Positions 2,903 to 55,439 of a stretch of 64,000 bases of DNA are shown piece after piece. The stretch is from the IMG/VR virus record IMGVR_UViG_3300045988_158233. One strand, 5' to 3'. This DNA comes from a virus. Its lineage: Duplodnaviria > Heunggongvirae > Uroviricota > Caudoviricetes. The notes beneath the pieces are model-generated. The model was not told where the DNA came from and searched no databases. It saw nothing but the letters and a program-made list of their open reading frames with translations. The position numbers were made by a program, and so were the translations under genes. The first letter of the stretch is position 1, and every line of letters starts with the position of its first letter.

Positions 2903-3092
2903 TTTAGACATTATTTATATGGCTGTGAGGTTTAAAATGCGATCTCACAGCCGCAATCATAGGGATATATTAGTGAGTTACTAGATACGAATTTGAACAG
3001 CCGTTAAACGGCATATGCATAGATAGGTAAGTATATACCTATAATTGAAAGGAGAAGTGTGATATAAATCCGCCATCCCGATTTGACTTTTC

Positions 3093-10698: not shown

Positions 10699-11879
10699 TG
10701 AGCCTTTATGTTATATCAACATTTAGGTTGGTCACAATATTGCCTGTTAAAAGTGGAATTATCGTGAGCGAGCTGAAAGAGCTAATTACCGAATTAGATT
10801 TTGAACAATGGTTGGACACTGAAGGTATCGTTTATCGACGTGGAGGCGTGAGTGCTCGCGGTCGTGAAGTGAATATCAAGGAGTGTCCGGTATGCGGCAG
10901 CTCCAACTGGAAGGTATATTTCAATCTGACCAGTGGCGTCGGCAAATGCTTCGCTGGTGATCATCCCGAAGAGATTCAGTTCAATAAGCTGGTCTTCCTC
11001 AAGCACTACAGCGGTAAATCACGACGACAGTTCGAGGAATATGTGCAGAACGCTCTTCTTTCCCAGGGGTGGGCACCAAAGAAAGAAGAGATAGTGCTTA
11101 CAAGCACAGTCGAGTTAGAGGGACCACTTGCACTCCCTCGTCATTACGAACTTCCTATAGATGGCCGTCTTCCAGACTATCTGGTTGAACGAAACATATC
11201 GCCTGAAATGGCAAAGTATTTTGACCTACGATACTGCGTCGAAGGCAAGCACGCTTATGTAGATCCGTATACAGATCAGGTAAAAGGACAGATATTCGAT
11301 ATGCGAGTACTGATACCGGTTTACGATCTGGATGGGGTAATGAAGACATTTCAGGGACGAGACATTACCGGTACAGCAGACCGCCGCTACCTCTTTCCTA
11401 TGCAGCTTCCAGCTTCAGGTAAGTTTCTCTACAACGGCCATAATGCAGTTGGCAAACAGACTGTAGTTGTCTGTGAGGGGGCGTTCGATGTTATGGGAGT
11501 TAAACGAGCTATTTTTGACGAAGAAACATTACGTGATTACGTGGAACCAATAGGAACGTTCGGGATGCATCTATCTGGCAACACCACTCAGGATGCAGAA
11601 GATCAGCTGGGCGCGTTCCTGACGCTCAAGGCGCGTGGATTACGTAATGTGATCATGATGTGGGATAGTGAAAAGCAAGCTATACGCAACACTATGGCCG
11701 CAGCCAGGCGACTCACAAGTATTGGTCTTAATGTCAAAGTTGCGTGTTTGGGCGAGGAAGGACTCGACCCCGGCGATGCGACACCGGGGCAGATTATCAA
11801 AGCCTACTATTGCGCAAAACCTTATTCACGACAGCTTGAACTCTTAAGCAAGGTGAAAGGCATTGCAGCACTAGTTTGA
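10699..11879 (+). CDS. DNA primase (zinc-ribbon + TOPRIM)
   Basis: Zinc-finger CPVCGSSNWKVYFNLTSGVGKCFAG and TOPRIM-like VVCEGAFDVMGV. Start placed at the ATG preceded by AAAAGAAAAACACATG rather than the longer track ORF start 10626. Confidence 0.65.
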
Positions 11880-13016
11880 ACCAGTATTAGTCACATACAC
11901 ATTGACCGAAAATGATTTAACTTCTGTATTGAAGTTGTCAGTCATTACCGCGAGGTAGGCATTCTTGGTATCTCTGAATTGCTTCAGGATGATTTGAACG
12001 TTATCGGTGCAAACAAACGAGGTAGCCAGATTGCCTCCTTTCTCTGAAAAATCCTTCAGGAAGGTGCAGTCAACTTTGCCATCATTAGCGGTGAAGGTAG
12101 CATCATCACCCTGCCAGGTAAATGTAGCGTTAACGCCCTTATCAATGGATTTAGCAATAAGTCGCTGGGTGGCGGATTTTGTTTTGGCTTTGGAAGCCGG
12201 CGCTCGATATTTGCCGCTTTCTTTCAGTTCTGCAATGTAATCGCAGCCTCTTTTTTCTCCTTTATCGCAAGCAGTCTGATAAAGGTCGGCTGCTTTTTTA
12301 TAGTCCTTTTTTACACCTTCCCCATTCTCATACATAATGCCAAGATTGGTTATGGCGTCGGCGTTTCCAAGTTCCGCTGCCTTTTTATACCACTTAACTG
12401 CTTCTGCATCATTGCGTTTAACGCCTAACCCATCATCGTATAGTATTCCTAATCCTATCATAGCTTCTGAACTGCCTTGGTCTGCCGCCTTTTTGTAATA
12501 AGTAAAAGCCTTTTTATAATTCTTTTTAACGCCTTTACCATATTGGTAATACGCCCCAAGAACTGAAGTTGCTTTAACATACCCGGCATCAGAGGCTAGT
12601 TTGAAGTATTTAATGGCGAGTGCATGATCTACTTTACCAAGCATCCCCTTTTGATAAATAGCACCAAGATTGTTGTAGGCTCTACCTTCACGAGCATCCC
12701 CCGCAAGTTTGTAGTACTCAACAGCTTTATTTAGGTCTTTATCTACACCCTCGCCAAATGTGTACATAACTCCAAGTGCATAATATGCTACTTTATCTCC
12801 CTTTTCTGCAGCTAGATCAATCCACTTCTTGGCCTCAACTACATCCTTATCAAAACCATTGACACCATCAAAATAATTTGTACCTAACTCACTTTGTGCT
12901 GCGGTATCCCCTGCGGTAGCGGCTTCTATCAGCGTTTGTTTATTGTCTGCGTTAACGAATCCAGAGTTAAAAAGCAAAGTTAATGCCAGCAACGATGAAG
13001 ATTTTATGTATTTCAT
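11871..13016 (-). CDS. Secreted Sel1-repeat (TPR-like) protein
   Basis: Signal peptide MKYIKSSSLLALTLLFNSGFVNA, then about eight ~36-aa repeats of the form A-x-YY-LG-MY-x-GEGV-KD-x-KA-x-x-WYKKAA; C-terminal ~100 aa non-repetitive. Start trimmed to the Met at the signal peptide. Confidence 0.75.
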   Translation of the reverse strand: MKYIKSSSLLALTLLFNSGFVNADNKQTLIEAATAGDTAAQSELGTNYFDGVNGFDKDVVEAKKWIDLAAEKGDKVAYYALGVMYTFGEGVDKDLNKAVEYYKLAGDAREGRAYNNLGAIYQKGMLGKVDHALAIKYFKLASDAGYVKATSVLGAYYQYGKGVKKNYKKAFTYYKKAADQGSSEAMIGLGILYDDGLGVKRNDAEAVKWYKKAAELGNADAITNLGIMYENGEGVKKDYKKAADLYQTACDKGEKRGCDYIAELKESGKYRAPASKAKTKSATQRLIAKSIDKGVNATFTWQGDDATFTANDGKVDCTFLKDFSEKGGNLATSFVCTDNVQIILKQFRDTKNAYLAVMTDNFNTEVKSFSVNVYVTNTGSN

Positions 13017-13249
13017 GTTTTTTTTTCTGTTGATATAGGATGAACAGTTTAGACGCGGCAAGCGTCAAGTGTGCGAAAAAGGGTACTTAAATTTAGTTAA
13101 TATGTCAGCTTTGTTGATTTAGTTTATGGTCGGTAAAGTTACTGGGAAACTAATAACCATAAGAAATAGTACGCCATTTAATTATTGTGGCACTGCTCGT
13201 GTTTTGATTAACTAATACCTGCGATAAATATAAATAAAGGGAAGCCAAC

Positions 13250-17233: not shown

Positions 17234-18008
17234 AAACATCACGATAAGTATTTACTTACTTATCTTTTATGTATAAGATGACTTTGTTTTCGTTGAGACG
17301 CGACTGTTTGAACTTAAATACAAGTGCAAACGAAGAAGTCTATCTGGCAGTAGCCTAATAAGCCAAACACCAGCGAGGTCAGTTTCCAGCCTCGTTACCG
17401 AAATGGGACACACTGAGCGAGTGTGATTGCAGAACGCAGGAGGGAACATTCATGTTCCCTCCGATGAAGTAACAGAATGGGCGGTTGGTATATTTTCAAC
17501 TCCATATGACTCCCGGATTCTTAGCCACTGACCGCCCATCCTGTTACGTCATTTTGTTCAATTATGTCGTTTATACTGGGTTAAAAAGCGGCGACGTAGC
17601 CCGGCTGGTATGGTTAGCCAGCACACAACGTTGAGGCCATTACATTTTTATCAATTCTAAGGTTCTATTCACAGAGATACCGGCGAGCGTTGATATGTAA
17701 CATGTTGGGCAAACATTCAATCGGAGTAGTGGCCTCAACGTTGTGAAGACAGGATTGTTGTGTAGGTTTAACCACTGTTGCCATTGGTGCCTGTTTTCAC
17801 AACAAATGATTCCATACATCACATTGTATAAATTACAAAGTAGGTGCTGTCCTCAAAAACATCATCTACTTAAAGATTTTGCCTACTATTGAGCGAAGTC
17901 GAAAGCGTCTGGCACTAACGAAAAGTGCAAGTAGCGGTGCGTTTCCTGGCAGAAACTAAACCGTCGCGATTGGCACTGTTGAGTAATAAATACTGGCAGT
18001 GTCGAATT

Positions 18009-18083
18009 GATGGTGTAGCTCAGCGGTAGAGCAGTTGGCTGTTAACCAACTGGTCGGTGGTTCGAATCCACCCACCATCGCCA
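18009..18083 (+). tRNA. tRNA-Asn (anticodon GTT)
   Basis: Manual fold: acceptor gatggtg/caccatc, T-arm ggtgg-ttcgaat-ccacc, anticodon loop ctGTTaa, 3' CCA encoded. Confidence 0.75.
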
Positions 18084-18088
18084 ATTTA

Positions 18089-18175
18089 GGAGAGTTAGTC
18101 CGTAGAGGTAGCGGGGTAGACTGTAAATCTACTGTCATTGCGACTCGGGTGGTTCGACTCCATCACTCCCCACCA
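18089..18175 (+). tRNA. tRNA-Tyr (anticodon GTA), class II with long variable arm
   Basis: Manual fold: anticodon stem gtaga/tctac with loop ctGTAaa, long variable arm, T-loop ttcgact, 3' CCA; one A-C mismatch in the acceptor stem. Confidence 0.65.
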
Positions 18176-18179
18176 AATT

Positions 18180-18255
18180 GCCGGTTTAGCTCAGTTGGTA
18201 GAGCGCCTGCCTTGTAAGCAGGATGTCAGCGGTTCGAGTCCGTTAACCGGCACCA
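18180..18255 (+). tRNA. tRNA-Thr (anticodon TGT)
   Basis: Manual fold: acceptor gccggtt/aaccggc, anticodon stem cctgc/gcagg with loop ctTGTaa, T-loop ttcgagt, 3' CCA. Confidence 0.75.
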
Positions 18256-18479
18256 ATACAACGATAAGATCATTACGGTTAATCGTCGTTCATGTGCACA
18301 ATGACTGGTCGAAAGGTAGTGATCTTACCGTTGTGGTGGATTCGCAGACTGATGCGATAGCTTTCTTGGATGTTAGGGAAATGCGGCCGCAAATCTTCCC
18401 TTTCGCGAGCGGTGATCGTCCGTAGTCCTAATTGGCTGCACCGTATGCCGGAGATTCAGTACCGGCTATCACAACGGCC

Positions 18480-18566
18480 GGAGAGTAGGGAGCATGGTGC
18501 TCAAGCGGTCTTGAAAACCGTCCCATTGCGCAAGCGATGATGGTTCGATTCCATTACTCTCCGCCA
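18480..18566 (+). tRNA. tRNA-Ser (anticodon TGA), class II with long variable arm
   Basis: Manual fold: acceptor ggagagt/actctcc perfect, anticodon loop ctTGAaa, long variable arm, T-loop ttcgatt, 3' CCA. Confidence 0.7.
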
Positions 18567-18722
18567 GACACAGCGTTGAGCGGTTTGGCCTTTTAATCAA
18601 CTCGATTAAGACTCCGCTAACATAAACCAGACCGCTCAACGCTGTGATAGACAATTACGGCAGACGTTCTTAACCATAGCTTGCTAACATCCTAGCAACA
18701 CTTTTTTTTCAGCGCAAAATTC

Positions 18723-18744
18723 AAAGGGGCTTCGGCCCCTTTTT
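18723..18744. terminator. Bidirectional rho-independent terminator
   Basis: aaaggggc-ttcg-gcccctttt, flanked by A-run on one side and T-run on the other; separates the tRNA cluster from the convergent minus-strand gene. Confidence 0.7.
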
Positions 18745-18751
18745 GGCTGGG

Positions 18752-19972
18752 TTAATTAAAACCGAATGAATTAAGTTCTGCTTTGAATTTATCGACCATT
18801 TTTTCAACTTCGTTTACAATTGCGTGAATCTCTTCGTCTTTTCTCGGATTAGAATTGAGGTCAAAATATGCCTTATATAAGGCATATTTTGACAAGCTTC
18901 CTTCAATATTTTCAGAGAAAATATTGGTACGACCATCAGTTAATAAGATATCAGCAGATCGGGAATTTAAATTATATTTATAGTAAATCTTTATTAGTCT
19001 GCTTATCTCTTTTTCATTCTTGATTACCCTCTGTCTTTTACCAGCAATATTAAGACTCCAGCCTACATAACTAGTCAGATCGGAATTAAACTTACACACT
19101 TCCGCATCAGCTTTTTCCATATTTAGATTAATATTATTTCTCATGTGTAGCGGTAATTCGTTGAATTTTTGCTGTAAATGCTGTTTGCAGGGATTGTTGT
19201 AAGACCACAGAATTGCGAACGTAGCTCTTTGCATCCGGGTATTCAGATCGATGTTAAAGTTCTCACGATCACGAATCATTTCATCTACATAAAACTCTAC
19301 AGCTTTTCGGTATTCTTTGTTAAAGATCTCGGTAACATACATTTCTAAATAATGGACTTTCGAGATTGCCTCATCAAAAAAAAGCTCACTCTCAAAGAAG
19401 TTGTATTTATTTAAGAGATTAGAAAGTCTACTTAAGTCATAGGTTTTATTATTTTCAATATTAAGACCAAAAATGGCAATTAACAGACTTACTTTATGAT
19501 TAATACTGCTACGTAATTGAGCTATATAAATTCTCTTTTCATCTTCTGCTGATGACAGTAGATAAAACTCTTTATCTAAATAATTTAAAATTAGAATTAT
19601 GTGATTTACATATTTAATGTAAATAGGTTGTTTTGTTACATAATAATAAATGCTTTTGATGGAATTAATGCTCAATTTCGTATTAAACTCTTTGTCATTC
19701 AACAAAGTGTTATTTACGTCCTCAAGTAATTTATCATGTTGCTCTAGTAATATTCCGTACCATTCCTTAAAAGAGGCTTTTTTCATTTCAAGAAGTGAAT
19801 CTGCCGTTAATTGTGTTGCCTTCATTGCAGCTTTTGCACTATTTCTTGCCTCATAAGCAGCCCAAGCAGTAACAAAAGTAGCAAGTGAACCTATAGCCTC
19901 TTTGTATTCTTTAGCCACATCCCAAAAAATAATAGTTATTACACACAATATGAGAATTAATATTAAAGGCAT
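18752..19972 (-). CDS. Hypothetical membrane-anchored protein (AT-rich moron; candidate exclusion/abortive-infection-type function)
   Basis: 406-aa minus-strand ORF; N-terminal TM helix PLILILILCVITIIFW then a K/E/N/I/Y-rich helical domain; very AT-rich codon usage compared with neighbours (by eye). Confidence 0.6.
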   Translation of the reverse strand: MPLILILILCVITIIFWDVAKEYKEAIGSLATFVTAWAAYEARNSAKAAMKATQLTADSLLEMKKASFKEWYGILLEQHDKLLEDVNNTLLNDKEFNTKLSINSIKSIYYYVTKQPIYIKYVNHIILILNYLDKEFYLLSSAEDEKRIYIAQLRSSINHKVSLLIAIFGLNIENNKTYDLSRLSNLLNKYNFFESELFFDEAISKVHYLEMYVTEIFNKEYRKAVEFYVDEMIRDRENFNIDLNTRMQRATFAILWSYNNPCKQHLQQKFNELPLHMRNNINLNMEKADAEVCKFNSDLTSYVGWSLNIAGKRQRVIKNEKEISRLIKIYYKYNLNSRSADILLTDGRTNIFSENIEGSLSKYALYKAYFDLNSNPRKDEEIHAIVNEVEKMVDKFKAELNSFGFN

Positions 19973-20178
19973 GTTATCTATATCGTTAGTTAATTTTGAA
20001 CATAAATGATACTTAGTCCACCGCTAAATTTCATCAAATTTGATAATTTTCTTGACGATCATGTCTCAAAATTATTTATACTTGGCATATTTGAGATATA
20101 TAATAATAGGTAATAACACACCTATCACATTTAAGCATCAACAAGATAAATTACGGACCCAGACCAGAAAGGAAACTA

Positions 20179-20427
20179 ATGAGAAATATACTTATCTACG
20201 GACGAGATAACTGCTCATACTGCAAACGTGCGGTCGAGCTGGCGAAGAAACTAAAGGGACATGGCTACGGTGATTATGAGTACATCGACATCACCACTGC
20301 CGGTATCGATAAGGAAAAACTTAGCGAAATTGTTGGTAAACCGGTAGAGACTATCCCCCAGGTGCTGATCGATGGCCAGCCGATTGGCGGATACACAGAA
20401 CTGGCTGCATACGTCAGCACCCTCTGA
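20179..20427 (+). CDS. Glutaredoxin / NrdH-like thioredoxin-fold protein
   Basis: 82 aa; CxxC active site in RDNCSYCKRAVEL near the N-terminus. Confidence 0.7.
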   Translation: MRNILIYGRDNCSYCKRAVELAKKLKGHGYGDYEYIDITTAGIDKEKLSEIVGKPVETIPQVLIDGQPIGGYTELAAYVSTL

Positions 20428-20432
20428 TTTTA

Positions 20433-20455
20433 ACGGCTCACAGGAGCCGTTTTTT
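20433..20455 (+). terminator. Rho-independent terminator
   Basis: acggctc-acag-gagccgt hairpin followed by tttttt. Confidence 0.65.
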
Positions 20456-20638
20456 ATTCCCACCAAACTCACACCTGTTTCCATTAAAATTCAAAAAACA
20501 ACGCCTGAATGATTCCATACCTACTATGTATGGAATCATTGCTGAAAATGAGTTACTTTTACTCTTGATCCTATAAGAATCTATGCCTAATATACTGTTT
20601 ACTTATACAGTGCATCGGCGTAACTCGGTGATTGTCAT

Positions 20639-21742
20639 ATGAAAAATAGCTTTGACAGAGCACGCGCTGCGGAGAACACCTCAAAAGAGGCGATAGAGTA
20701 TCTCGAAAGAGCATCTCAAATGCAGGCCGTTATGATCTCCCAGGTCAGCAATGACATGAGATTCTCGGACGCATTCATGTTATTCACTCGCTTATCTCTG
20801 CTGATAACCAGACGTCGGCCAGAGATCGCTGTTCATTGTATTTTGATACATGTTTTGCCGCACATTGCCGATGTAAAAGTAAGTGACATTAATAGGTTCA
20901 TGGTGAACCAACTGGTCAACCCACTAATACTGGATGGCAAAATTGTTATGGGCCGCCGCGTTTTCTCTCTGATGAAGCAGTTCCTTAGCTGGTGCGCCTT
21001 CCAGGGGATGATAGACGTGTCACCGTTAAACGATATGTCACTTAACAAAGTTGCCGGTGGCGCAAAGCCCACACCTCGCGAGCGGAAGCTGACCGACGCA
21101 GAGGTATGGGTGTTCTGGAATATATGGGACTACTTCAATGTGTGTGCTGGTACAAAATGGGCGGCCAGGCTGTGTCTTGTATCAGCAAGACGACCTGACG
21201 AAGTACTGCGGGCTAAAAAAAGTGAGTTCAATCTTAAGCGTGGGGTTTGGAATCAAGGCAAGAGGAACAAATCTGCCCGTGAGCATTCTCTGCCTTTAAG
21301 CTCATTAATGCGCACTTGTATTGAAGAGTTGTTCGAATATGGTAAAGACAGCCAGTGGCTCGTGCCTTCGAATAAAAAAATCGGGAAAGACCTTCCTATG
21401 TCTAAAGTGGCAATAGCCCAGGCATTACGTCGTATTCTGGAACGACCAGAACTGATGGAGCTTGAGCCATTTACACCCCGAGATTTGCGCCGTACTGCGC
21501 GTAGTTACTTCCCAGCATTAGGCATAAGCCAGGAGGTATCACGTAAAATCATGAACCACAGTCTTGAGGGGATAGATCGGGTCTACGACCGGCACGATTA
21601 TATGGACGAGATGCGAGACGCCTTAGAAAGTTTCTCGACGTACATCGCATCAATCGTAGAGCAACCGGATTTAGACGAAATTGACCACAAATTTAAGGGA
21701 GATCGTCTATCAACAGAGCTTATTCGTGTAAATTTTTCATAG
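20639..21742 (+). CDS. int: Tyrosine recombinase / phage integrase
   Basis: 367 aa; catalytic-domain residues in order: R in ARRPDEVLR, H-x-x-R in HSL...RRTARSY, and Y in RVYDRH. Confidence 0.75.
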   Translation: MKNSFDRARAAENTSKEAIEYLERASQMQAVMISQVSNDMRFSDAFMLFTRLSLLITRRRPEIAVHCILIHVLPHIADVKVSDINRFMVNQLVNPLILDGKIVMGRRVFSLMKQFLSWCAFQGMIDVSPLNDMSLNKVAGGAKPTPRERKLTDAEVWVFWNIWDYFNVCAGTKWAARLCLVSARRPDEVLRAKKSEFNLKRGVWNQGKRNKSAREHSLPLSSLMRTCIEELFEYGKDSQWLVPSNKKIGKDLPMSKVAIAQALRRILERPELMELEPFTPRDLRRTARSYFPALGISQEVSRKIMNHSLEGIDRVYDRHDYMDEMRDALESFSTYIASIVEQPDLDEIDHKFKGDRLSTELIRVNFS

Positions 21743-22123
21743 AGACTTTATGGCCTCAACAACCTTTTGTGATGCGCCTTTCTCTTTACCGAATCGCTCG
21801 TTATATGCAGCAAGAACCTGTTTTTCGTCCTCGTTAAGAGGAGCAGTGCCTTCTTTGTATAAAAATGCTGCGAGTTCGGGTTGGCGTTCTTCCAGCACCA
21901 TCATCATAAGACGACTTGGCTCAATACCCAGTGCCAGCGCCAGCGGACGAACCTTATCGATAGGCAAAGGAATTTTGCCGCTTTTAATTAAAGAAAGGTT
22001 GTTGGCGTTTTTATACCCAATTGTTTTGGCTATCTGGGCCTGGCTCATAGGTGAGGATTCAATCAACCCTGCGATAAAAGCAGCGTAGCGACTTTCTATA
22101 AATTCAATCTTGTTATCAGACAT
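21737..22123 (-). CDS. HTH (XRE-family) transcriptional regulator, repressor-like
   Basis: 128-aa minus-strand ORF with helix-turn-helix signature MSQAQIAKTIGYKNANNLSLIKSGK; divergent from a small + strand ORF across an AT-rich intergenic region. Confidence 0.6.
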   Translation of the reverse strand: MSDNKIEFIESRYAAFIAGLIESSPMSQAQIAKTIGYKNANNLSLIKSGKIPLPIDKVRPLALALGIEPSRLMMMVLEERQPELAAFLYKEGTAPLNEDEKQVLAAYNERFGKEKGASQKVVEAIKSL

Positions 22124-29972: not shown

Positions 29973-29997
29973 AGGCCCGTTATATAACGGGCCTTTT
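29973..29997. terminator. Bidirectional terminator between convergent genes
   Basis: aggcccgtta-tata-acgggcct hairpin with T-run. Confidence 0.65.
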
Positions 29998-29999
29998 AG

Positions 30000-30980
30000 T
30001 TAACAAATTCTATTATTAACTAGTATAGTATGGAGTTTATTATTTATAGGGGAATACGGATCGAAATCACTCATCATGACACTATTTGATTCGCACGCCT
30101 GTTCAAAGGCATACATAATTATAGGCATATAGCGCTCATGACATTTTTTAAGTGATTTAACTTCCTCTGATAGATACTCTAGTCGATTGTTACCTCTAAT
30201 AGCCAATTCCACCTCATCATATGAGTACAACAAATCGTTTAAATCACAGAAAAAATTAAAATTTGGTAGTCCATGTTTTAAATCCCCGTCCACAATTGTT
30301 TCTTCAAAGAATTCCCCTAATGCAGTAATGTTTCTCTCAATACCTTCGCATCGTTCAATGATCTTCAGATCTTCACTAGATAGCCATAATCTAAGCCATT
30401 TCTCTCTATCCCTTGGAGATTTCAGATATTGGTCTTCGTTAAATGTTACTGATGTACTTCCTGAGTTATTGTAATCCGCTGTACTTGATAACGATGCGAT
30501 GGTTTGTTTGTCTAAATGCCGCCAGTAAATATCTGGCTCTTCATGCTTATTATCTTCGTTTAGACAAATTAAAACGATCACTATAGGGAAATCGCATTCC
30601 CCCCAATACTTTAAATTTTTATAGGGGATCTGTACTCCTAGACTACTACTCATTGTGCGTGAGGTGGTTTTTACCTGAACGCCAATAAACATACCGGTAG
30701 AAAGTTCATTTTCATAGATTTCAACCTGTGCATCCAACCCCATATCAATATCCAGCAGTCGACAAGGCCATTTGAAATAACGGGAAATCCAATAAGCAAA
30801 TAAGTACTCACCAGCGTGTCCTTCTGCACTGGTCTTCGGATATGTCATGCCTTCAGTTTTATTTTTTTCTGCTGCTGACCTCGCAGACTTAACTTTTGGG
30901 GGTGGGGACAGTTCTTTAGTCGGCACAGGCTTTTCTGCTTTTGCTTGATTGTTAGCTTTATTCATTGATTTTATTCTCAC
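30000..30980 (-). CDS. Hypothetical protein with N-terminal PD-(D/E)xK-like nuclease motif (AT-rich moron)
   Basis: 326-aa minus-strand ORF; GEYLFAYWISRYFKWPCRLLDIDMGLDAQVEIYEN...GMFIGVQVKTT has acidic residues followed by a strand ending QVK, as in restriction-endonuclease-fold nucleases; Lys-rich N-terminal tail; AT-rich by eye. Confidence 0.55.
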   Translation of the reverse strand: MRIKSMNKANNQAKAEKPVPTKELSPPPKVKSARSAAEKNKTEGMTYPKTSAEGHAGEYLFAYWISRYFKWPCRLLDIDMGLDAQVEIYENELSTGMFIGVQVKTTSRTMSSSLGVQIPYKNLKYWGECDFPIVIVLICLNEDNKHEEPDIYWRHLDKQTIASLSSTADYNNSGSTSVTFNEDQYLKSPRDREKWLRLWLSSEDLKIIERCEGIERNITALGEFFEETIVDGDLKHGLPNFNFFCDLNDLLYSYDEVELAIRGNNRLEYLSEEVKSLKKCHERYMPIIMYAFEQACESNSVMMSDFDPYSPINNKLHTILVNNRIC

Positions 30981-37008: not shown

Positions 37009-37223
37009 GTTTACAGTAAAATTTATATAAGTTAGTATCTACCTATCATGAAGATTTTTATTGAATACTTGTTACTCATCGTTTCAATAGCTTTTGCCAT
37101 CGACTGCATTTTCACCGGTGTCATTCGTAAAGTCTTTTCCCCGGTGAACGACGTAGTCATAAACGCTTTGGCTATCGTGCTCGTATTTAATTCAGCATTT
37201 GATGTAATCAAAGAGGTGGCAGC

Positions 37224-37817: not shown

Positions 37818-38351
37818 CACCGCTGACAGCATACACAATCAACTGCCGCTGATAGCATATCGAGAGTCTATCTCACCGCTCACAGCATACTTTACTCGAT
37901 TTTTTACCGCTGACAGCATACTTAAGACATTGCATGAATAATGTGTACCGGTATGGGTATAACCAGAACAAAATTACCGCTGGCAGCATACGAAGGTCTG
38001 ATATATGCCATTAATTACCGCTGATAGCATATCCAAACAAAAATTCCTCAATAAAACACCGCTGACAGCATACGTTCTATCAGGGAGCAGCAGGCAATAA
38101 ATACCTTTCACTACAAGTAATCAGCGCAATGGGAATAGAATGTTAGTGAGCGCAAACCTATATGGAATGCACTCTTCGAGGTTAGTAACCACTGGGGAGG
38201 TATAAAAGAGCATTGAGTGGTGATAGATGATTTACCGCTCACAGCATACGTTTATCTCACTATACCGCTGGTAGCATATCTTTAACCGTTCACAGCATAC
38301 TTTTCAGAAAAATAGCCGCTGATAGCATACATTTCACCGCTGACAGCATAT
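37818..38351. repeat. Iteron array downstream of repA (about 12 copies of a 17-bp repeat, consensus yACCGCTGAyAGCATAy)
   Basis: Copies at about 37818, 37844, 37874, 37905, 37975, 38026, 38057, 38233, 38263, 38284, 38314, 38335; irregular spacing; all in the same orientation. Confidence 0.8.
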
Positions 38352-39445
38352 CAAAGCAGTTTGAGACTATTGGAAAGGATCTCAATCATCTTGATATTTT
38401 CAGGCGTCAAATTCTGCGAAAGTTCAGTTATCTTGTTGATAATGTTCTGTTTAGCATCAATTTCCCCGGCTTTCTCATCTGGTTTTTTGGGTTCGATGTC
38501 TTCAGGTTTTGGCGGTGCGACTTTAAGTTTTGGATTGCGGCTGTGAATCTGGATATAGATCGACCGCCCTCGCTTAATCTCGCTGTATTCGAGATAGCCC
38601 AAATCTTGGAGAGCTTTTAAGCCGTTACGTATAGTCTGATTCTGCGAGCTTACATTCCTGCTACTCAAATTGAGTCGCGCACGCAATCGAGCAAGCGATA
38701 CCGGCGCAGGCTTGGTTGGAAGACTTTCGATGAAGGTGTACAGAGCCTGTGCTGTTTCTTTGCGTGGTAGCTTATTGATAACCTTTAACTGCAAAAGAAC
38801 CTTATGGTCAAAGCGATATAGTTCGGCCAGCTTCGGTTCTGCATAGAACACCACCGTATCTTTCTGCTCGTTGTAGTCCACGCTATTGATGAGGTGCACC
38901 ATCAGAAGCGAGATCTTGTTAGAGCCGTCGACGTTCTTTTCTTCATACGTTCTCTGGAAAGACAGAGTTGTACGCATGATCTTCAAAAGACTGTTTGTAA
39001 GCCGGTCGCGGAGTGTTTTGCGGATCTGTGACGATGGATAGCCACAAAACTTCGCAAATTTCGTGATGCTTAACTCGACACGACCGTTAGGTTCGCCGTA
39101 TTCTGCCAGCGAACGCACAACGCCCACCCACGTTTTGAAATCATGATCCATGTCGAGACGAGGACCGGTTATCTTGATATCGGAATAGCCTTCAGAACGG
39201 GCTACTTCGAGCTGAACAAGCTCCTTTGAAGCATCGATCTCATTTGGCTTGTTACGCTTGCTGTATTTTGTCCCCTTGAGCGTGGGCACGAACAATCCCA
39301 GCCGCATCAACGCAATTGGTTGGACTGTATTGTTGCTATTAGGGACAAGTTCCCCTGTGTACAATTCAAGGGAACCTTCTTCAAAGTTGTCGAGATTATC
39401 TTCTACTTCTTTGTTATTTTTACCTTTTTTATTTTTTGTGGACAT
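38351..39445 (-). CDS. repA: Iteron-type plasmid replication initiator (RepA-like)
   Basis: Minus-strand ORF flanked on both sides by iteron arrays; start trimmed to the Met (MSTKNKKGK...) that does not overlap the upstream iterons; basic N-terminus, ~365 aa. Confidence 0.65.
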   Translation of the reverse strand: MSTKNKKGKNNKEVEDNLDNFEEGSLELYTGELVPNSNNTVQPIALMRLGLFVPTLKGTKYSKRNKPNEIDASKELVQLEVARSEGYSDIKITGPRLDMDHDFKTWVGVVRSLAEYGEPNGRVELSITKFAKFCGYPSSQIRKTLRDRLTNSLLKIMRTTLSFQRTYEEKNVDGSNKISLLMVHLINSVDYNEQKDTVVFYAEPKLAELYRFDHKVLLQLKVINKLPRKETAQALYTFIESLPTKPAPVSLARLRARLNLSSRNVSSQNQTIRNGLKALQDLGYLEYSEIKRGRSIYIQIHSRNPKLKVAPPKPEDIEPKKPDEKAGEIDAKQNIINKITELSQNLTPENIKMIEILSNSLKLL

Positions 39446-39464
39446 GTGGACACCTTTGTCATTC

Positions 39465-39567
39465 AACCGCTGACAGCATACTTGATTTGCCGCTGACAGA
39501 ATACCAAAAACAGTTGGCAGCATACGGTGAACCGCTGACAGACTATCAATTACCGCTGACAGCATAC
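39465..39567. repeat. Iteron array upstream of repA (about 5 copies; probable origin/autoregulatory region)
   Basis: Copies of the same repeat at about 39465, 39488, 39515 (partial), 39529, 39551. Confidence 0.75.
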
Positions 39568-40411: not shown

Positions 40412-40665
40412 CCCTCCAGATCGTATATTGGCGTAGATAGAATCTACGCCCCCTCAAAATAGCTCTCATAGCGTTCTACAGTGATCCTGTCTTATTTTTA
40501 GTCATACAGACAAGCAAAGTTGCGCCACGATAAATAGGTATATACTTACTTATAAATTTTGTATATTAAGGCGCTCGTTTCATTCCTAACATACCGTTAT
40601 GCATAGTTGTTTACCTCCTCATTGCTCTTAGAATTTGTATCAAAATAACCACAAAGGAAAAATAC

Positions 40666-45209: not shown

Positions 45210-45282
45210 TTTCATTGATAGGTAAGTGCTTATCTATTAACATGAGCCACTATATTTAGTGGCCCTCTTTATTTGGTGATAC

Positions 45283-54662: not shown

Positions 54663-54833
54663 CGTTCCCCTACTGAAAATAAAGCCCATAGAGAGCTTTA
54701 TAGTGCTGGGTAAGCCAATCACATACCCAGCACCACAAAAACGCGCCAGAGAGCTTCTCGTTTGCATTTCTGGCGCGTTTTATTTGATTGCCATACATAA
54801 AATCAAATGCAAAAATAGGTAATCACTTACCTA

Positions 54834-55439
54834 TTGAGAAAGAAGATGATTGCAGCCGAAAAAATCAAAAAGCGAAAGCGCGACAACTCTCTTCGTGACC
54901 TCTGGAGAACACCTGACTGGCTGTTTAATGCCATTCAACGTTATCTGGGAGTGACATTTGATGTTGACGTTGCCTGCAATAAGGACAATGCAAAGCTGCC
55001 TATTTTCATAGGCGTTGAGCGCGATGCTTTGAAATCTGAATGGGGGCAGCCAGGTACAATTGCCTTCCTCAATCCACCCTACTCCAAAATCTCCCCCTGG
55101 ATTGATGCGGCTATACGTGAGCAGGCTCGCGGAGTTACAACAGTGATGCTAATTCCTCAATCCCTCGATACAAAGTGGTATGAGCGTGCAACAGAGTGTG
55201 CGAATGAGACGATTATTCTGTCTGGTGGCCGCGTAGCGTTTGTCGAGCCTGACGTCAATCTGGGTCAGGTAGAAGTAAACATCAACCCCGGTGGCAGTAT
55301 GCTCGTTGTTTTTCGCGGATTCTGTCAGGACGCTGGGCACTCTATAAGCAAGATCCCTTTGGACGTCATGAAAAGTCTGGGAGGGTATGATCCTGCGAAT
55401 GTGATCAGGAAAAAAAGACCATCAAAGAAGGCTGCTTAG
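54834..55439 (+). CDS. Phage-type DNA N6-adenine methyltransferase (Dam-like)
   Basis: 201 aa; catalytic NPPY in IAFLNPPYSKISPW; overall size and layout of small phage Dam enzymes. Confidence 0.6.
   Translation: MRKKMIAAEKIKKRKRDNSLRDLWRTPDWLFNAIQRYLGVTFDVDVACNKDNAKLPIFIGVERDALKSEWGQPGTIAFLNPPYSKISPWIDAAIREQARGVTTVMLIPQSLDTKWYERATECANETIILSGGRVAFVEPDVNLGQVEVNINPGGSMLVVFRGFCQDAGHSISKIPLDVMKSLGGYDPANVIRKKRPSKKAA

Follow-up and report, generated by a model that had tools for sequence, protein, structure and literature searches.

In an Escherichia coli phage-plasmid, a single minus-strand gene for a 406-residue product (18752..19972) sits between a tRNA cluster and a glutaredoxin gene, and that product is probably a membrane-anchored anti-phage protein of the AbiC/AbiP type that works as a single-gene system. 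The stretch of DNA in question, 64,000 nucleotides from the Caudoviricetes record IMGVR_UViG_3300045988_158233, is what we call the window, and all coordinates are positions in it. An earlier note, made by reading the letters alone, had picked out this open reading frame (ORF), and it is there as described and intact. The 64-kb window is an SSU5/pHCM2-type phage-plasmid of E. coli; its region 17900..21800 is 95-99% identical to ~110-kb non-mobilizable plasmids (rep_cluster_488 or IncFIB) and, to the same degree, to phages such as Cyrano and CMS-2020a. Full-length remote homology places the protein in a divergent, hitherto unannotated clade of the putAbiC family, and the ORF and its control region make up a leftward cassette, complete in itself, at a recombination hotspot in phage-plasmids of the SSU5-like kind. 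Homology, architecture, the other occupants of the slot, the placement of relatives in prophage accessory positions and the evolutionary pattern all argue for an anti-phage role. On this sequence evidence we regard the gene as a credible candidate for phage defence, not as a new kind of system.

The family is reached through relatives. A phmmer search of 1.84 billion representative proteins returned just 56 matches, the near ones (33-55% identity, 390-432 residues) unannotated and the far ones (E 5.8e-12 to 3.5e-4, 425-475 residues) aligned over much of their length. Together with 38 full-length matches, the window protein makes up a set of 39 aligned family sequences, 28 of which match the Pfam model PF16872 (putAbiC, 'putative phage abortive infection protein'). 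The same words are the NCBI name of the distant group; every source that names a member of the near clade calls it 'hypothetical protein'. Scored singly against PF16872, which has a gathering score of 22 bits, 10 distant full-length homologues gave 25.7-42.4 bits. Among 10 near relatives from the clade, three scored 19.2, 19.5 and 22.0 bits and the other seven gave no match, and the window protein itself fell short of the gathering score, with no match to PF16872 even at E up to 10. It is the comparison of the two groups that joins them: when hhalign compares 30 sequences of the near clade with 29 PF16872-positive ones, the two groups match with a probability of 100% and an E value of 6.5e-43 over 419 columns. 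PADLOC's AbiC model matches five of the 39 sequences (best E 1.3e-6) and its AbiP model two (best E 2e-4), the matches being confined to the core region in the relatives scanned in detail. The soluble domain, for which the earlier note could place no motif, can thus be assigned to a family by remote homology.

Only one direct match of the window protein is strong. This is phrog_18168 in PHROGs, function unknown (E 1.3e-130), in which positions 2-405 of a 408-position profile align with residues 14-405, near full length. The clade is therefore already catalogued as an uncharacterised viral protein family, in an entry that itself has neither annotation nor a link to putAbiC. Homology to structural or replication proteins, looked for as a refutation of the cargo idea, was absent from Pfam, NCBIfam, PADLOC, PHROGs, PDB and Foldseek comparisons. 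The sequence-profile search of the PDB gave chance-level matches only (E >= 0.09), Foldseek found nothing at E <= 0.001 in PDB or BFVD (template-modelling scores, TM-scores, <= 0.17), and structure comparison of the window protein detected no nucleic-acid-binding fold. We also considered the 'Abi_C' domain of AbiJ and SadR as a relative and rejected it, as it is a distinct HEPN-type domain that shares only the name (PMC13590631; 10.1101/2024.07.02.601686). As an aside, the PADLOC model PD-T4-4_B also finds a match in the distant PF16872 relative P0035 (E 3.6e-4, residues 67-234 aligned with profile positions 34-205 of 206), a hint that one part of the E. coli PD-T4-4 system may have a putAbiC-type core as well.

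The protein can be divided into four parts, all encoded on the minus strand.

19922..19969, minus strand, codons 2-17: N-terminal transmembrane helix (PLILILILCVITIIFW), Kyte-Doolittle mean 2.7-3.0
19808..19903, minus strand, codons 24-55: second hydrophobic helix, rich in Ala (IGSLATFVTAWAAYEARNSAKAAMKA), the best-conserved part of the protein
19379..19660, minus strand, codons ~105-198: equivalent of the Pfam putAbiC core domain, where the PF16872 and PADLOC AbiC/AbiP matches of the relatives map
18755..19372, minus strand, codons 201-406: hypervariable C-terminal half with helices and a small sheet, proposed specificity or sensor module, from the identity profile and the structural model

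The earlier note had described one transmembrane helix followed by a helical soluble domain of ~380 residues. The strong helix stands: residues 1-19 have a Kyte-Doolittle mean of 2.7, and an N-terminal hydrophobic helix is found in all members of the clade. It is not alone, as a second and weaker hydrophobic helix follows at residues ~26-40. Here its hydropathy is 1.05, against transmembrane-like values of 1.6-2.05 in relatives, because the window protein carries a 4-residue deletion. This Ala-rich helix has a mean pairwise identity of 71.7% within the clade and 37.8% against the distant group, with T32, T35, A36, W37, A39, A42, S45, A46, A49 and A52 invariant. An AlphaFold2 model made from the clade alignment is confident, with a predicted local distance difference test (pLDDT) of 83.6 and a predicted TM-score (pTM) of 0.73. 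It consists of the N-terminal helix, a 68-residue helix (24-91) that spans the second hydrophobic segment and runs on into the body, a helical bundle and a small three-stranded sheet (306-352), so that the soluble domain is mostly helical, as had been claimed, apart from that sheet. In the core, the window protein retains the hydrophobic residues Y121, L129, Y137, I157, I165, A166, L187, F192 and F193. The two halves of the protein differ greatly in conservation: identity over residues 23-200 is 52-72% within the clade and 34-38% against the distant group, and over residues 201-406 it is 25-35% and 11-14%.

The second body of evidence is the place where the gene is found. The features of the slot and its surroundings are these.

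18009..18566, plus strand: tRNA genes Asn, Tyr, Thr and Ser, to the left of the slot
18723..18744, no strand assigned: G+C-rich hairpin with an A-run and a T-run, probable bidirectional intrinsic terminator and exact left border of the cassette, from folding and conservation
18745..20191, no strand assigned: variable cassette of 1447 bp, made up of the cargo gene, the AT-rich DNA upstream of it and the cassette's own version of the grxA ribosome-binding site and opening 4-5 codons, from breakpoints
18752..19972, minus strand: cargo gene, putAbiC-like (AbiC/AbiP-like) membrane-anchored protein of 406 residues with an ATG start, from the ORF list and remote homology
19973..20178, no strand assigned: divergent control region, AT-rich, with the cargo gene on one side and grxA on the other, within the variable cassette, guanine-plus-cytosine (GC) fraction 0.286
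20179..20427, plus strand: grxA (glutaredoxin), backbone gene and right border, its first 13 nt belonging to the cassette; GrxA is annotated in relatives and homology resumes at 20192
20639..21742, plus strand: tyrosine recombinase gene, backbone

With the recombinase as bait we fetched 71 related loci; with plasmid loci and the window counted, 54 loci (53 relatives and the window) have both borders of the slot. BLAST breakpoints against 15 relatives fall at 18743-18747 on the left and 20192-20193 on the right, and alignment of the junctions gives the same borders. The right border lies 13 nt inside grxA, where homology to every cassette class resumes, and each cassette therefore brings its own grxA ribosome-binding site and first codons. 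Alleles of the family fill the slot in 25 of the 54 loci, at amino acid identities to the window protein of 100, 95.6, 64-68, 36, 33, 31-32 and 30%, between flanks that are ~98% identical. The cassette has no leftward gene besides the cargo gene. Seven or more allele classes of the family alternate in the slot with several unrelated cassettes, among them the following.

AbiGi with a 402-residue partner (PADLOC E 5.5e-47, Pfam E 2e-24)
PDC-S67 protein (E 5.9e-36)
PDC-M68A-like HNH protein (E 8.3e-25)
529-residue multi-pass membrane protein
no leftward cargo gene, only a 114-residue Gp49-family gene joined to grxA

In the loci with the AbiGi, PDC-S67 and PDC-M68A-like occupants the flanks are 94-99% identical. 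Another minus-strand protein, of 297-301 residues, fills the slot in L016, L020, L022, L035, L041 and L073, where the GC fraction of the slot interval is 0.29-0.32. It has no match in Pfam or PADLOC, and its LLRHTIVHN motif (R-x4-H) suggests a HEPN-type RNase; its gene is an unannotated candidate for defence. The start of grxA varies too. In relatives with an otherwise empty slot, the Gp49-family gene (1529-1879 in locus L003) overlaps the grxA start through an ATGA; the window has no gp49, and its grxA begins MRNIL rather than MTIT, has a different ribosome-binding site and encodes a GrxA of 82 rather than 81 residues.

The earlier note had proposed a cargo hotspot of the kind found beside tRNA and integrase genes. 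That the gene is exchanged cargo is borne out, since it is not invariant among related elements with the same neighbours and the slot is swapped among allele classes and unrelated cassettes. What does not hold is the tRNA/integrase logic: borders at a terminator and at codon 5 of grxA point to exchange between conserved flanks and not to integrase-mediated insertion. We rejected insertion beside a tRNA gene on account of those borders and because the recombinase gene belongs to the backbone. A second copy of the gene on a plasmid was likewise rejected, the 'second place' in the BLAST output being the internal palindrome matching itself.

The left border is a hairpin of sequence GGGGCC-UUCG-GGCCCC, with a 6-bp G+C stem, a UUCG loop and a flanking A-run and U-run. 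It folds on both strands (-20.7 kcal/mol on the plus and -19.2 on the minus, z -2.9 and -3.4), in keeping with the bidirectional terminator that had been proposed to insulate the ORF. It is, though, a property of the conserved backbone and not of the insert: the 185 bp 3' of tRNA-Ser, hairpin included, are 80-99% conserved in all loci, whatever the cargo. A consensus terminator scanner reported zero sites and overlooked this hairpin, probably because the A and U runs can lengthen the stem and leave too few U after it, and direct folding was used instead.

In composition the cargo gene stands apart from the rest of the window. Its GC fraction is 0.312 against 0.453 for the window as a whole. 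Over all 1221-bp segments the mean is 0.452 (standard deviation 0.031), and the minimum, 0.305 in the segment starting at 18901, is ~4.5 standard deviations below it. At third codon positions its GC fraction (GC3) is 0.288, and none of the 64 non-overlapping ORFs has a lower one (mean 0.464, standard deviation 0.066). The impression that this is the most AT-rich part of the window, gained by eye in the earlier note, was therefore correct, as was that of a long AT-rich region upstream.

PLSDB holds a homologue on 141 plasmids, mostly 105-115-kb non-mobilizable elements of Escherichia, Klebsiella, Enterobacter and Salmonella. The exact allele is rare: among 5426 complete E. coli genomes, 10 have it at >=80% coverage of the cassette (15 have any match), on plasmids only, and none carries the identical cassette on the chromosome. 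The identical cassette occurs in eight chicken E. coli plasmid records (108,475-bp plasmids) and, at 99.9%, in one pig record. The family also has other homes. Three prophages have a member in an accessory slot, each alone and on the opposite strand: in a P2-like prophage a 55%-identical one is flanked by the baseplate spike gene and by tail-completion gene S, in a lambdoid prophage a 43%-identical one separates the replication genes from the RusA/Q genes downstream, and in another lambdoid prophage a PF16872-positive relative separates antiterminator Q from the holin gene. Two more members stand alone in chromosomal islets, one of them beside an IS110 transposase. In every context outside the slot the family gene has a GC content of 32-36% against 47-57% in its flanks. 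We found no conserved partner gene, the family gene being solitary in five other genomic contexts with different neighbours.

Within the other allele classes the ratio of non-synonymous to synonymous substitution rates (dN/dS) is 0.24-0.44, against 0.01-0.09 for the recombinase gene in the same pairs. Between the window and its closest allele, in locus L001, there are 20 non-synonymous and five synonymous changes, a dN/dS of 0.97, against 0.05-0.26 for five neighbouring genes (Fisher p = 6.7e-6). Diversifying pressure could give a ratio of ~1 for the two closest alleles, and so could a relaxed constraint on this one. The full-length frame, kept over a long range of divergence, argues that the family is functional.

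How might such a protein work? While the element resides as a plasmid, the cargo gene would be transcribed from its own AT-rich upstream region. The N-terminal hydrophobic helix or helices would anchor the product in the inner membrane and leave most of it in the cytoplasm. The conserved N-terminal half, with the putAbiC core and the Ala-rich helix next to the membrane, could be the common executing module, and the hypervariable C-terminal half could recognise a product of the incoming phage. Recognition would then stop the development of the phage, perhaps by a block on phage gene expression if the analogy with AbiC and AbiP holds; alternatively, the protein might perturb the membrane. Either way the host population, and hence the phage-plasmid, would be protected from competing phages. 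The earlier note had suggested abortive infection or superinfection exclusion from context. The full-length remote homology to PF16872 and the AbiGi, PDC-S67 and PDC-M68A-like alternates in the slot strengthen that suggestion, from which we infer the function itself.

The control region and the ORF hold several candidate signals.

20006..20034, minus strand: candidate sigma-70-type promoter of the cargo gene, ATGAAA-17-TATCAT, 9/12, weak, from a consensus scan only
20075..20104, plus strand: candidate rightward promoter for grxA and the recombinase gene, TTTATA-18-TATAAT, 10/12, from a consensus scan, directly upstream of ATAGGT-N8-ACCTAT
20106..20125, no strand assigned: ATAGGT-N8-ACCTAT palindromic motif, putative regulatory element at the head of the rightward unit, from its recurrence
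18860..18893, no strand assigned: 34-nt perfect palindrome (GTCAAAATATGCCTTATATAAGGCATATTTTGAC) within the ORF, codons 360-371, from a palindrome scan

ATAGGT-N8-ACCTAT occurs six times in the window at <=1 mismatch (3023-3042, 20106-20125, 37027-37046, 40534-40553, 45218-45237 and 54815-54834) against 0.06 expected. All six sites are intergenic and upstream of plus-strand genes, and the motif is probably a promoter or operator element of the phage-plasmid, read by one regulator. One good copy is present at the same relative place in every cargo-holding cassette class, and none in the gp49-only class. As it heads the rightward unit in each of those classes, it most likely serves grxA and the backbone and not the cargo gene, which was inserted with the terminator to its left and this element to its right, and which points away from the latter. 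The 34-nt palindrome is the longest in the window (the next is 22 nt), with ~4e-5 expected per 64 kb once the AT-rich composition is allowed for. The L001 allele has it with one central mismatch, the L062 allele (68% identity) has an imperfect inverted repeat in the corresponding position and the L002 allele (64%) has none. Among the possibilities are an mRNA hairpin, a binding site and the product of a template-switch mutation at a quasi-palindrome.

Several points weigh against an anti-phage protein of the AbiC/AbiP type. The window protein has no direct match to the Pfam, NCBIfam or PADLOC models, and the link to the AbiC and AbiP that have been studied is therefore two steps removed and concerns only a core of 80-90 residues. 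A homologue search with the PF16872-positive profile stayed inside the Enterobacterales and did not reach lactococcal AbiC, so the last link to that protein rests on the PADLOC models. The polar core signature of PF16872 (G-H...S-P-Y-M-R, S-S-x-x-R-S-x-I-R-N-D, F-F-E-H) is mostly replaced in the clade: at positions 114, 115, 119, 123, 127, 151, 159, 160, 168 and 195 the PF16872-positive group has G, H, S, R, H, S, N, D, N and H, and the window protein K, Q, I, N, L, A, H, K, F and S. The biochemical activity of the clade need not, therefore, be that of the family. A tblastn search of 50,697 deposited phage genomes found no homologue. Promoter-like hexamers on both strands of the spacer number 10, against 7.7 (standard deviation 3.5) in shuffles, which is not above chance, and reading of the sequence reveals no clear Shine-Dalgarno sequence before the ATG of the cargo gene. 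The literature we searched reports no phenotype for any enterobacterial member of the family, and an AbiC-like protein of lactococci, 38% identical to AbiC, failed to protect against the phages it was challenged with (PMC11381338). A further weak point is that AbiC and AbiP are themselves mechanistically unsolved, and relaxed constraint, if that is what the dN/dS of ~1 reflects, would count on the same side.

The other explanations differ in what the protein would be doing at the membrane, if anything. It might act at the envelope in superinfection exclusion, blocking DNA entry or the function of a receptor or injection complex, of related phage-plasmids or of other phages, without killing the cell, much as prophage Sie-type proteins do. 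We think this unlikely. A membrane-anchored product of a temperate element, encoded in a separate leftward unit and most conserved next to the membrane, would suit exclusion, and the many allele classes could mirror the exclusion specificities of competing phage-plasmids. Positively charged residues tend to stay on the cytoplasmic side of membrane segments, the positive-inside rule, and in the window protein the N-terminus has no positive charge and the positives come after the second hydrophobic helix; this distribution of charge favours a cytoplasmic location for the 380-residue domain. The homology, moreover, is of AbiC/AbiP type, with no Sie, Imm or Cor-type family matched in Pfam, PHROGs or PADLOC, and AbiC and AbiP act after DNA entry (PMC13064643). 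It is distinctly unlikely that the gene is an accessory 'moron' unrelated to phages, a membrane-associated fitness, stress or colonisation factor that has found a permissive slot. Gut isolates of chicken, pig and human carry the cassette, and its matches have no functional annotation beyond a Pfam-derived name, the reading as defence coming from sequence comparison. Set against this, the sole characterised relatives are anti-phage proteins, the identifiable alternative occupants of the slot are defence genes, and defence genes typically show such a pairing of conserved and hypervariable halves along with a recurrent presence in the accessory slots of prophages.

The changes that separate the window protein from the L001 allele invite a more deflationary account, in which this allele is a drifting passenger, functionally relaxed and no longer selected, and the locus a neutral dumping ground. 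The 20 non-synonymous and five synonymous changes are exactly the neutral expectation, one of them falls at Y363, otherwise invariant in the clade, and the window allele lacks four residues of its second hydrophobic helix. The altered residue, Y363N, is carried by L001 and not by the window allele, however, and both alleles have an intact frame, as do all the allele classes, even those with only 30% identity across the whole protein. With a dN/dS of 0.24-0.44 in the other allele classes and a predicted structure that AlphaFold2 returns with confidence, we consider drift quite improbable. Temperate elements also place anti-defence genes in variable slots. Such genes have been reported in phage-plasmids (10.1101/2025.09.12.675607), which counts in favour of a counter-defence or regulatory protein that serves the phage-plasmid itself, inhibiting host defences or controlling lysis timing at the membrane; holin and antiholin regulators, too, are membrane-anchored. 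We can hardly credit this one, as scans of Pfam, NCBIfam, PADLOC and PHROGs gave no likeness to a lysis or anti-defence family, the lysis genes of the window are far away, the cargo gene has its own terminator and control region, and solitary members of the family live in chromosomal islets outside any phage.

A bolder version of the anti-phage interpretation is possible, if doubtful. The clade would form a family in its own right, so far unrecognised, of membrane defences that consist of one protein, in which an N-terminal module of hydrophobic hairpin and Ala-rich helix executes and the C-terminal half sets phage specificity, with SSU5-like phage-plasmids shuffling the alleles through a dedicated slot. 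The Ala-rich helix could then be able to oligomerise. The ATAGGT-N8-ACCTAT promoter or operator and the grxA start that come with each cassette would form a modular exchange system specific to this group of phage-plasmids, and the 34-bp palindrome could be a functional regulatory or recombinational site and not an accident.

Three other genes of the window deserve mention. A possible second accessory ('moron') unit lies at 29973-30980, where a minus-strand ORF of 326 residues (30000-30980) with a DUF4365 domain (E 2.3e-16), a GC fraction of 0.373 and a GC3 of 0.325 adjoins a 22-nt G+C-rich palindrome (29973-29994) that resembles a bidirectional terminator; this may be another cargo or defence slot of the phage-plasmid. 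The pair at 38351-39565 and 11871-13061 consists of a Rep3-type replication initiator gene, listed first (minus strand, E 5.2e-9) and presumably the plasmid replication gene, and a gene for a 396-residue Sel1-repeat protein (minus strand, E 1.5e-53) in a region of reversed GC skew.

E. coli, Shigella, Salmonella and Klebsiella commonly carry SSU5-like phage-plasmids, on which a recent survey with standard tools turned up few defence systems; the text of that DefenseFinder survey of SSU5-type elements names neither AbiC nor AbiG (10.1101/2025.09.12.675607). In the papers we searched we found no description of this grxA slot. Our comparison reveals a precisely bounded slot that cycles defence cargo and whose commonest occupant in our sample (25 of 54 loci, and 141 PLSDB plasmids) goes unseen by Pfam, NCBIfam and PADLOC in the window protein. 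If the family does protect against phages, the defence content of SSU5-like elements has been underestimated, and the natural series of alleles, with a conserved N-terminal and a swapped C-terminal half, would serve for mapping specificity in the AbiC/AbiP group. Single-gene proteins of the abortive-infection type and hotspots of this general kind are known already, and neither the protein nor the slot would surprise a specialist.

The closest known proteins are the enterobacterial PF16872 proteins of 425-480 residues (for example P0036 of Pectobacterium, P0131 of Citrobacter and P0136 of Enterobacter), full-length homologues with phmmer E values down to 5.8e-12. They share with the clade the N-terminal hydrophobic helices, the Ala-rich helix, an LLEQH segment, the putAbiC core, the variable C-terminal half and the habit of sitting as a solitary gene in prophage accessory slots. 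The clade differs from them in being shorter (398-445 residues), in scoring at or below the Pfam threshold and in having most of the polar signature replaced. Further off are AbiC (Prf) and AbiP of Lactococcus lactis, which have no direct sequence match to the window protein, come from a Gram-positive host and are shorter (PADLOC profiles of 306 and 223 positions). Grouped as 'AbiC/P', they are single genes with one or two N-terminal transmembrane helices and a helical extramembrane domain (PMC13064643), an architecture that the window protein matches with its N-terminal anchor, its helical domain and its single gene on a mobile element. AbiC leads to less major capsid protein; AbiP binds RNA, and the switch from early to late expression fails (PMC13064643). 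These phenotypes are known from the lactococcal proteins only. For the slot, the nearest parallel is the defence hotspot of P4-like satellites, where six of eight randomly chosen loci of unknown function protected against phages (PMC13586616), a proportion that also speaks for an anti-phage role here. That hotspot, too, is a fixed slot between conserved genes in which unrelated defence cassettes alternate, many of their occupants being of unknown function. Here, instead, the slot belongs to an SSU5-like phage-plasmid and runs from a terminator to codon 5 of grxA, and every cassette comes with an ATAGGT-N8-ACCTAT element and a grxA start of its own.

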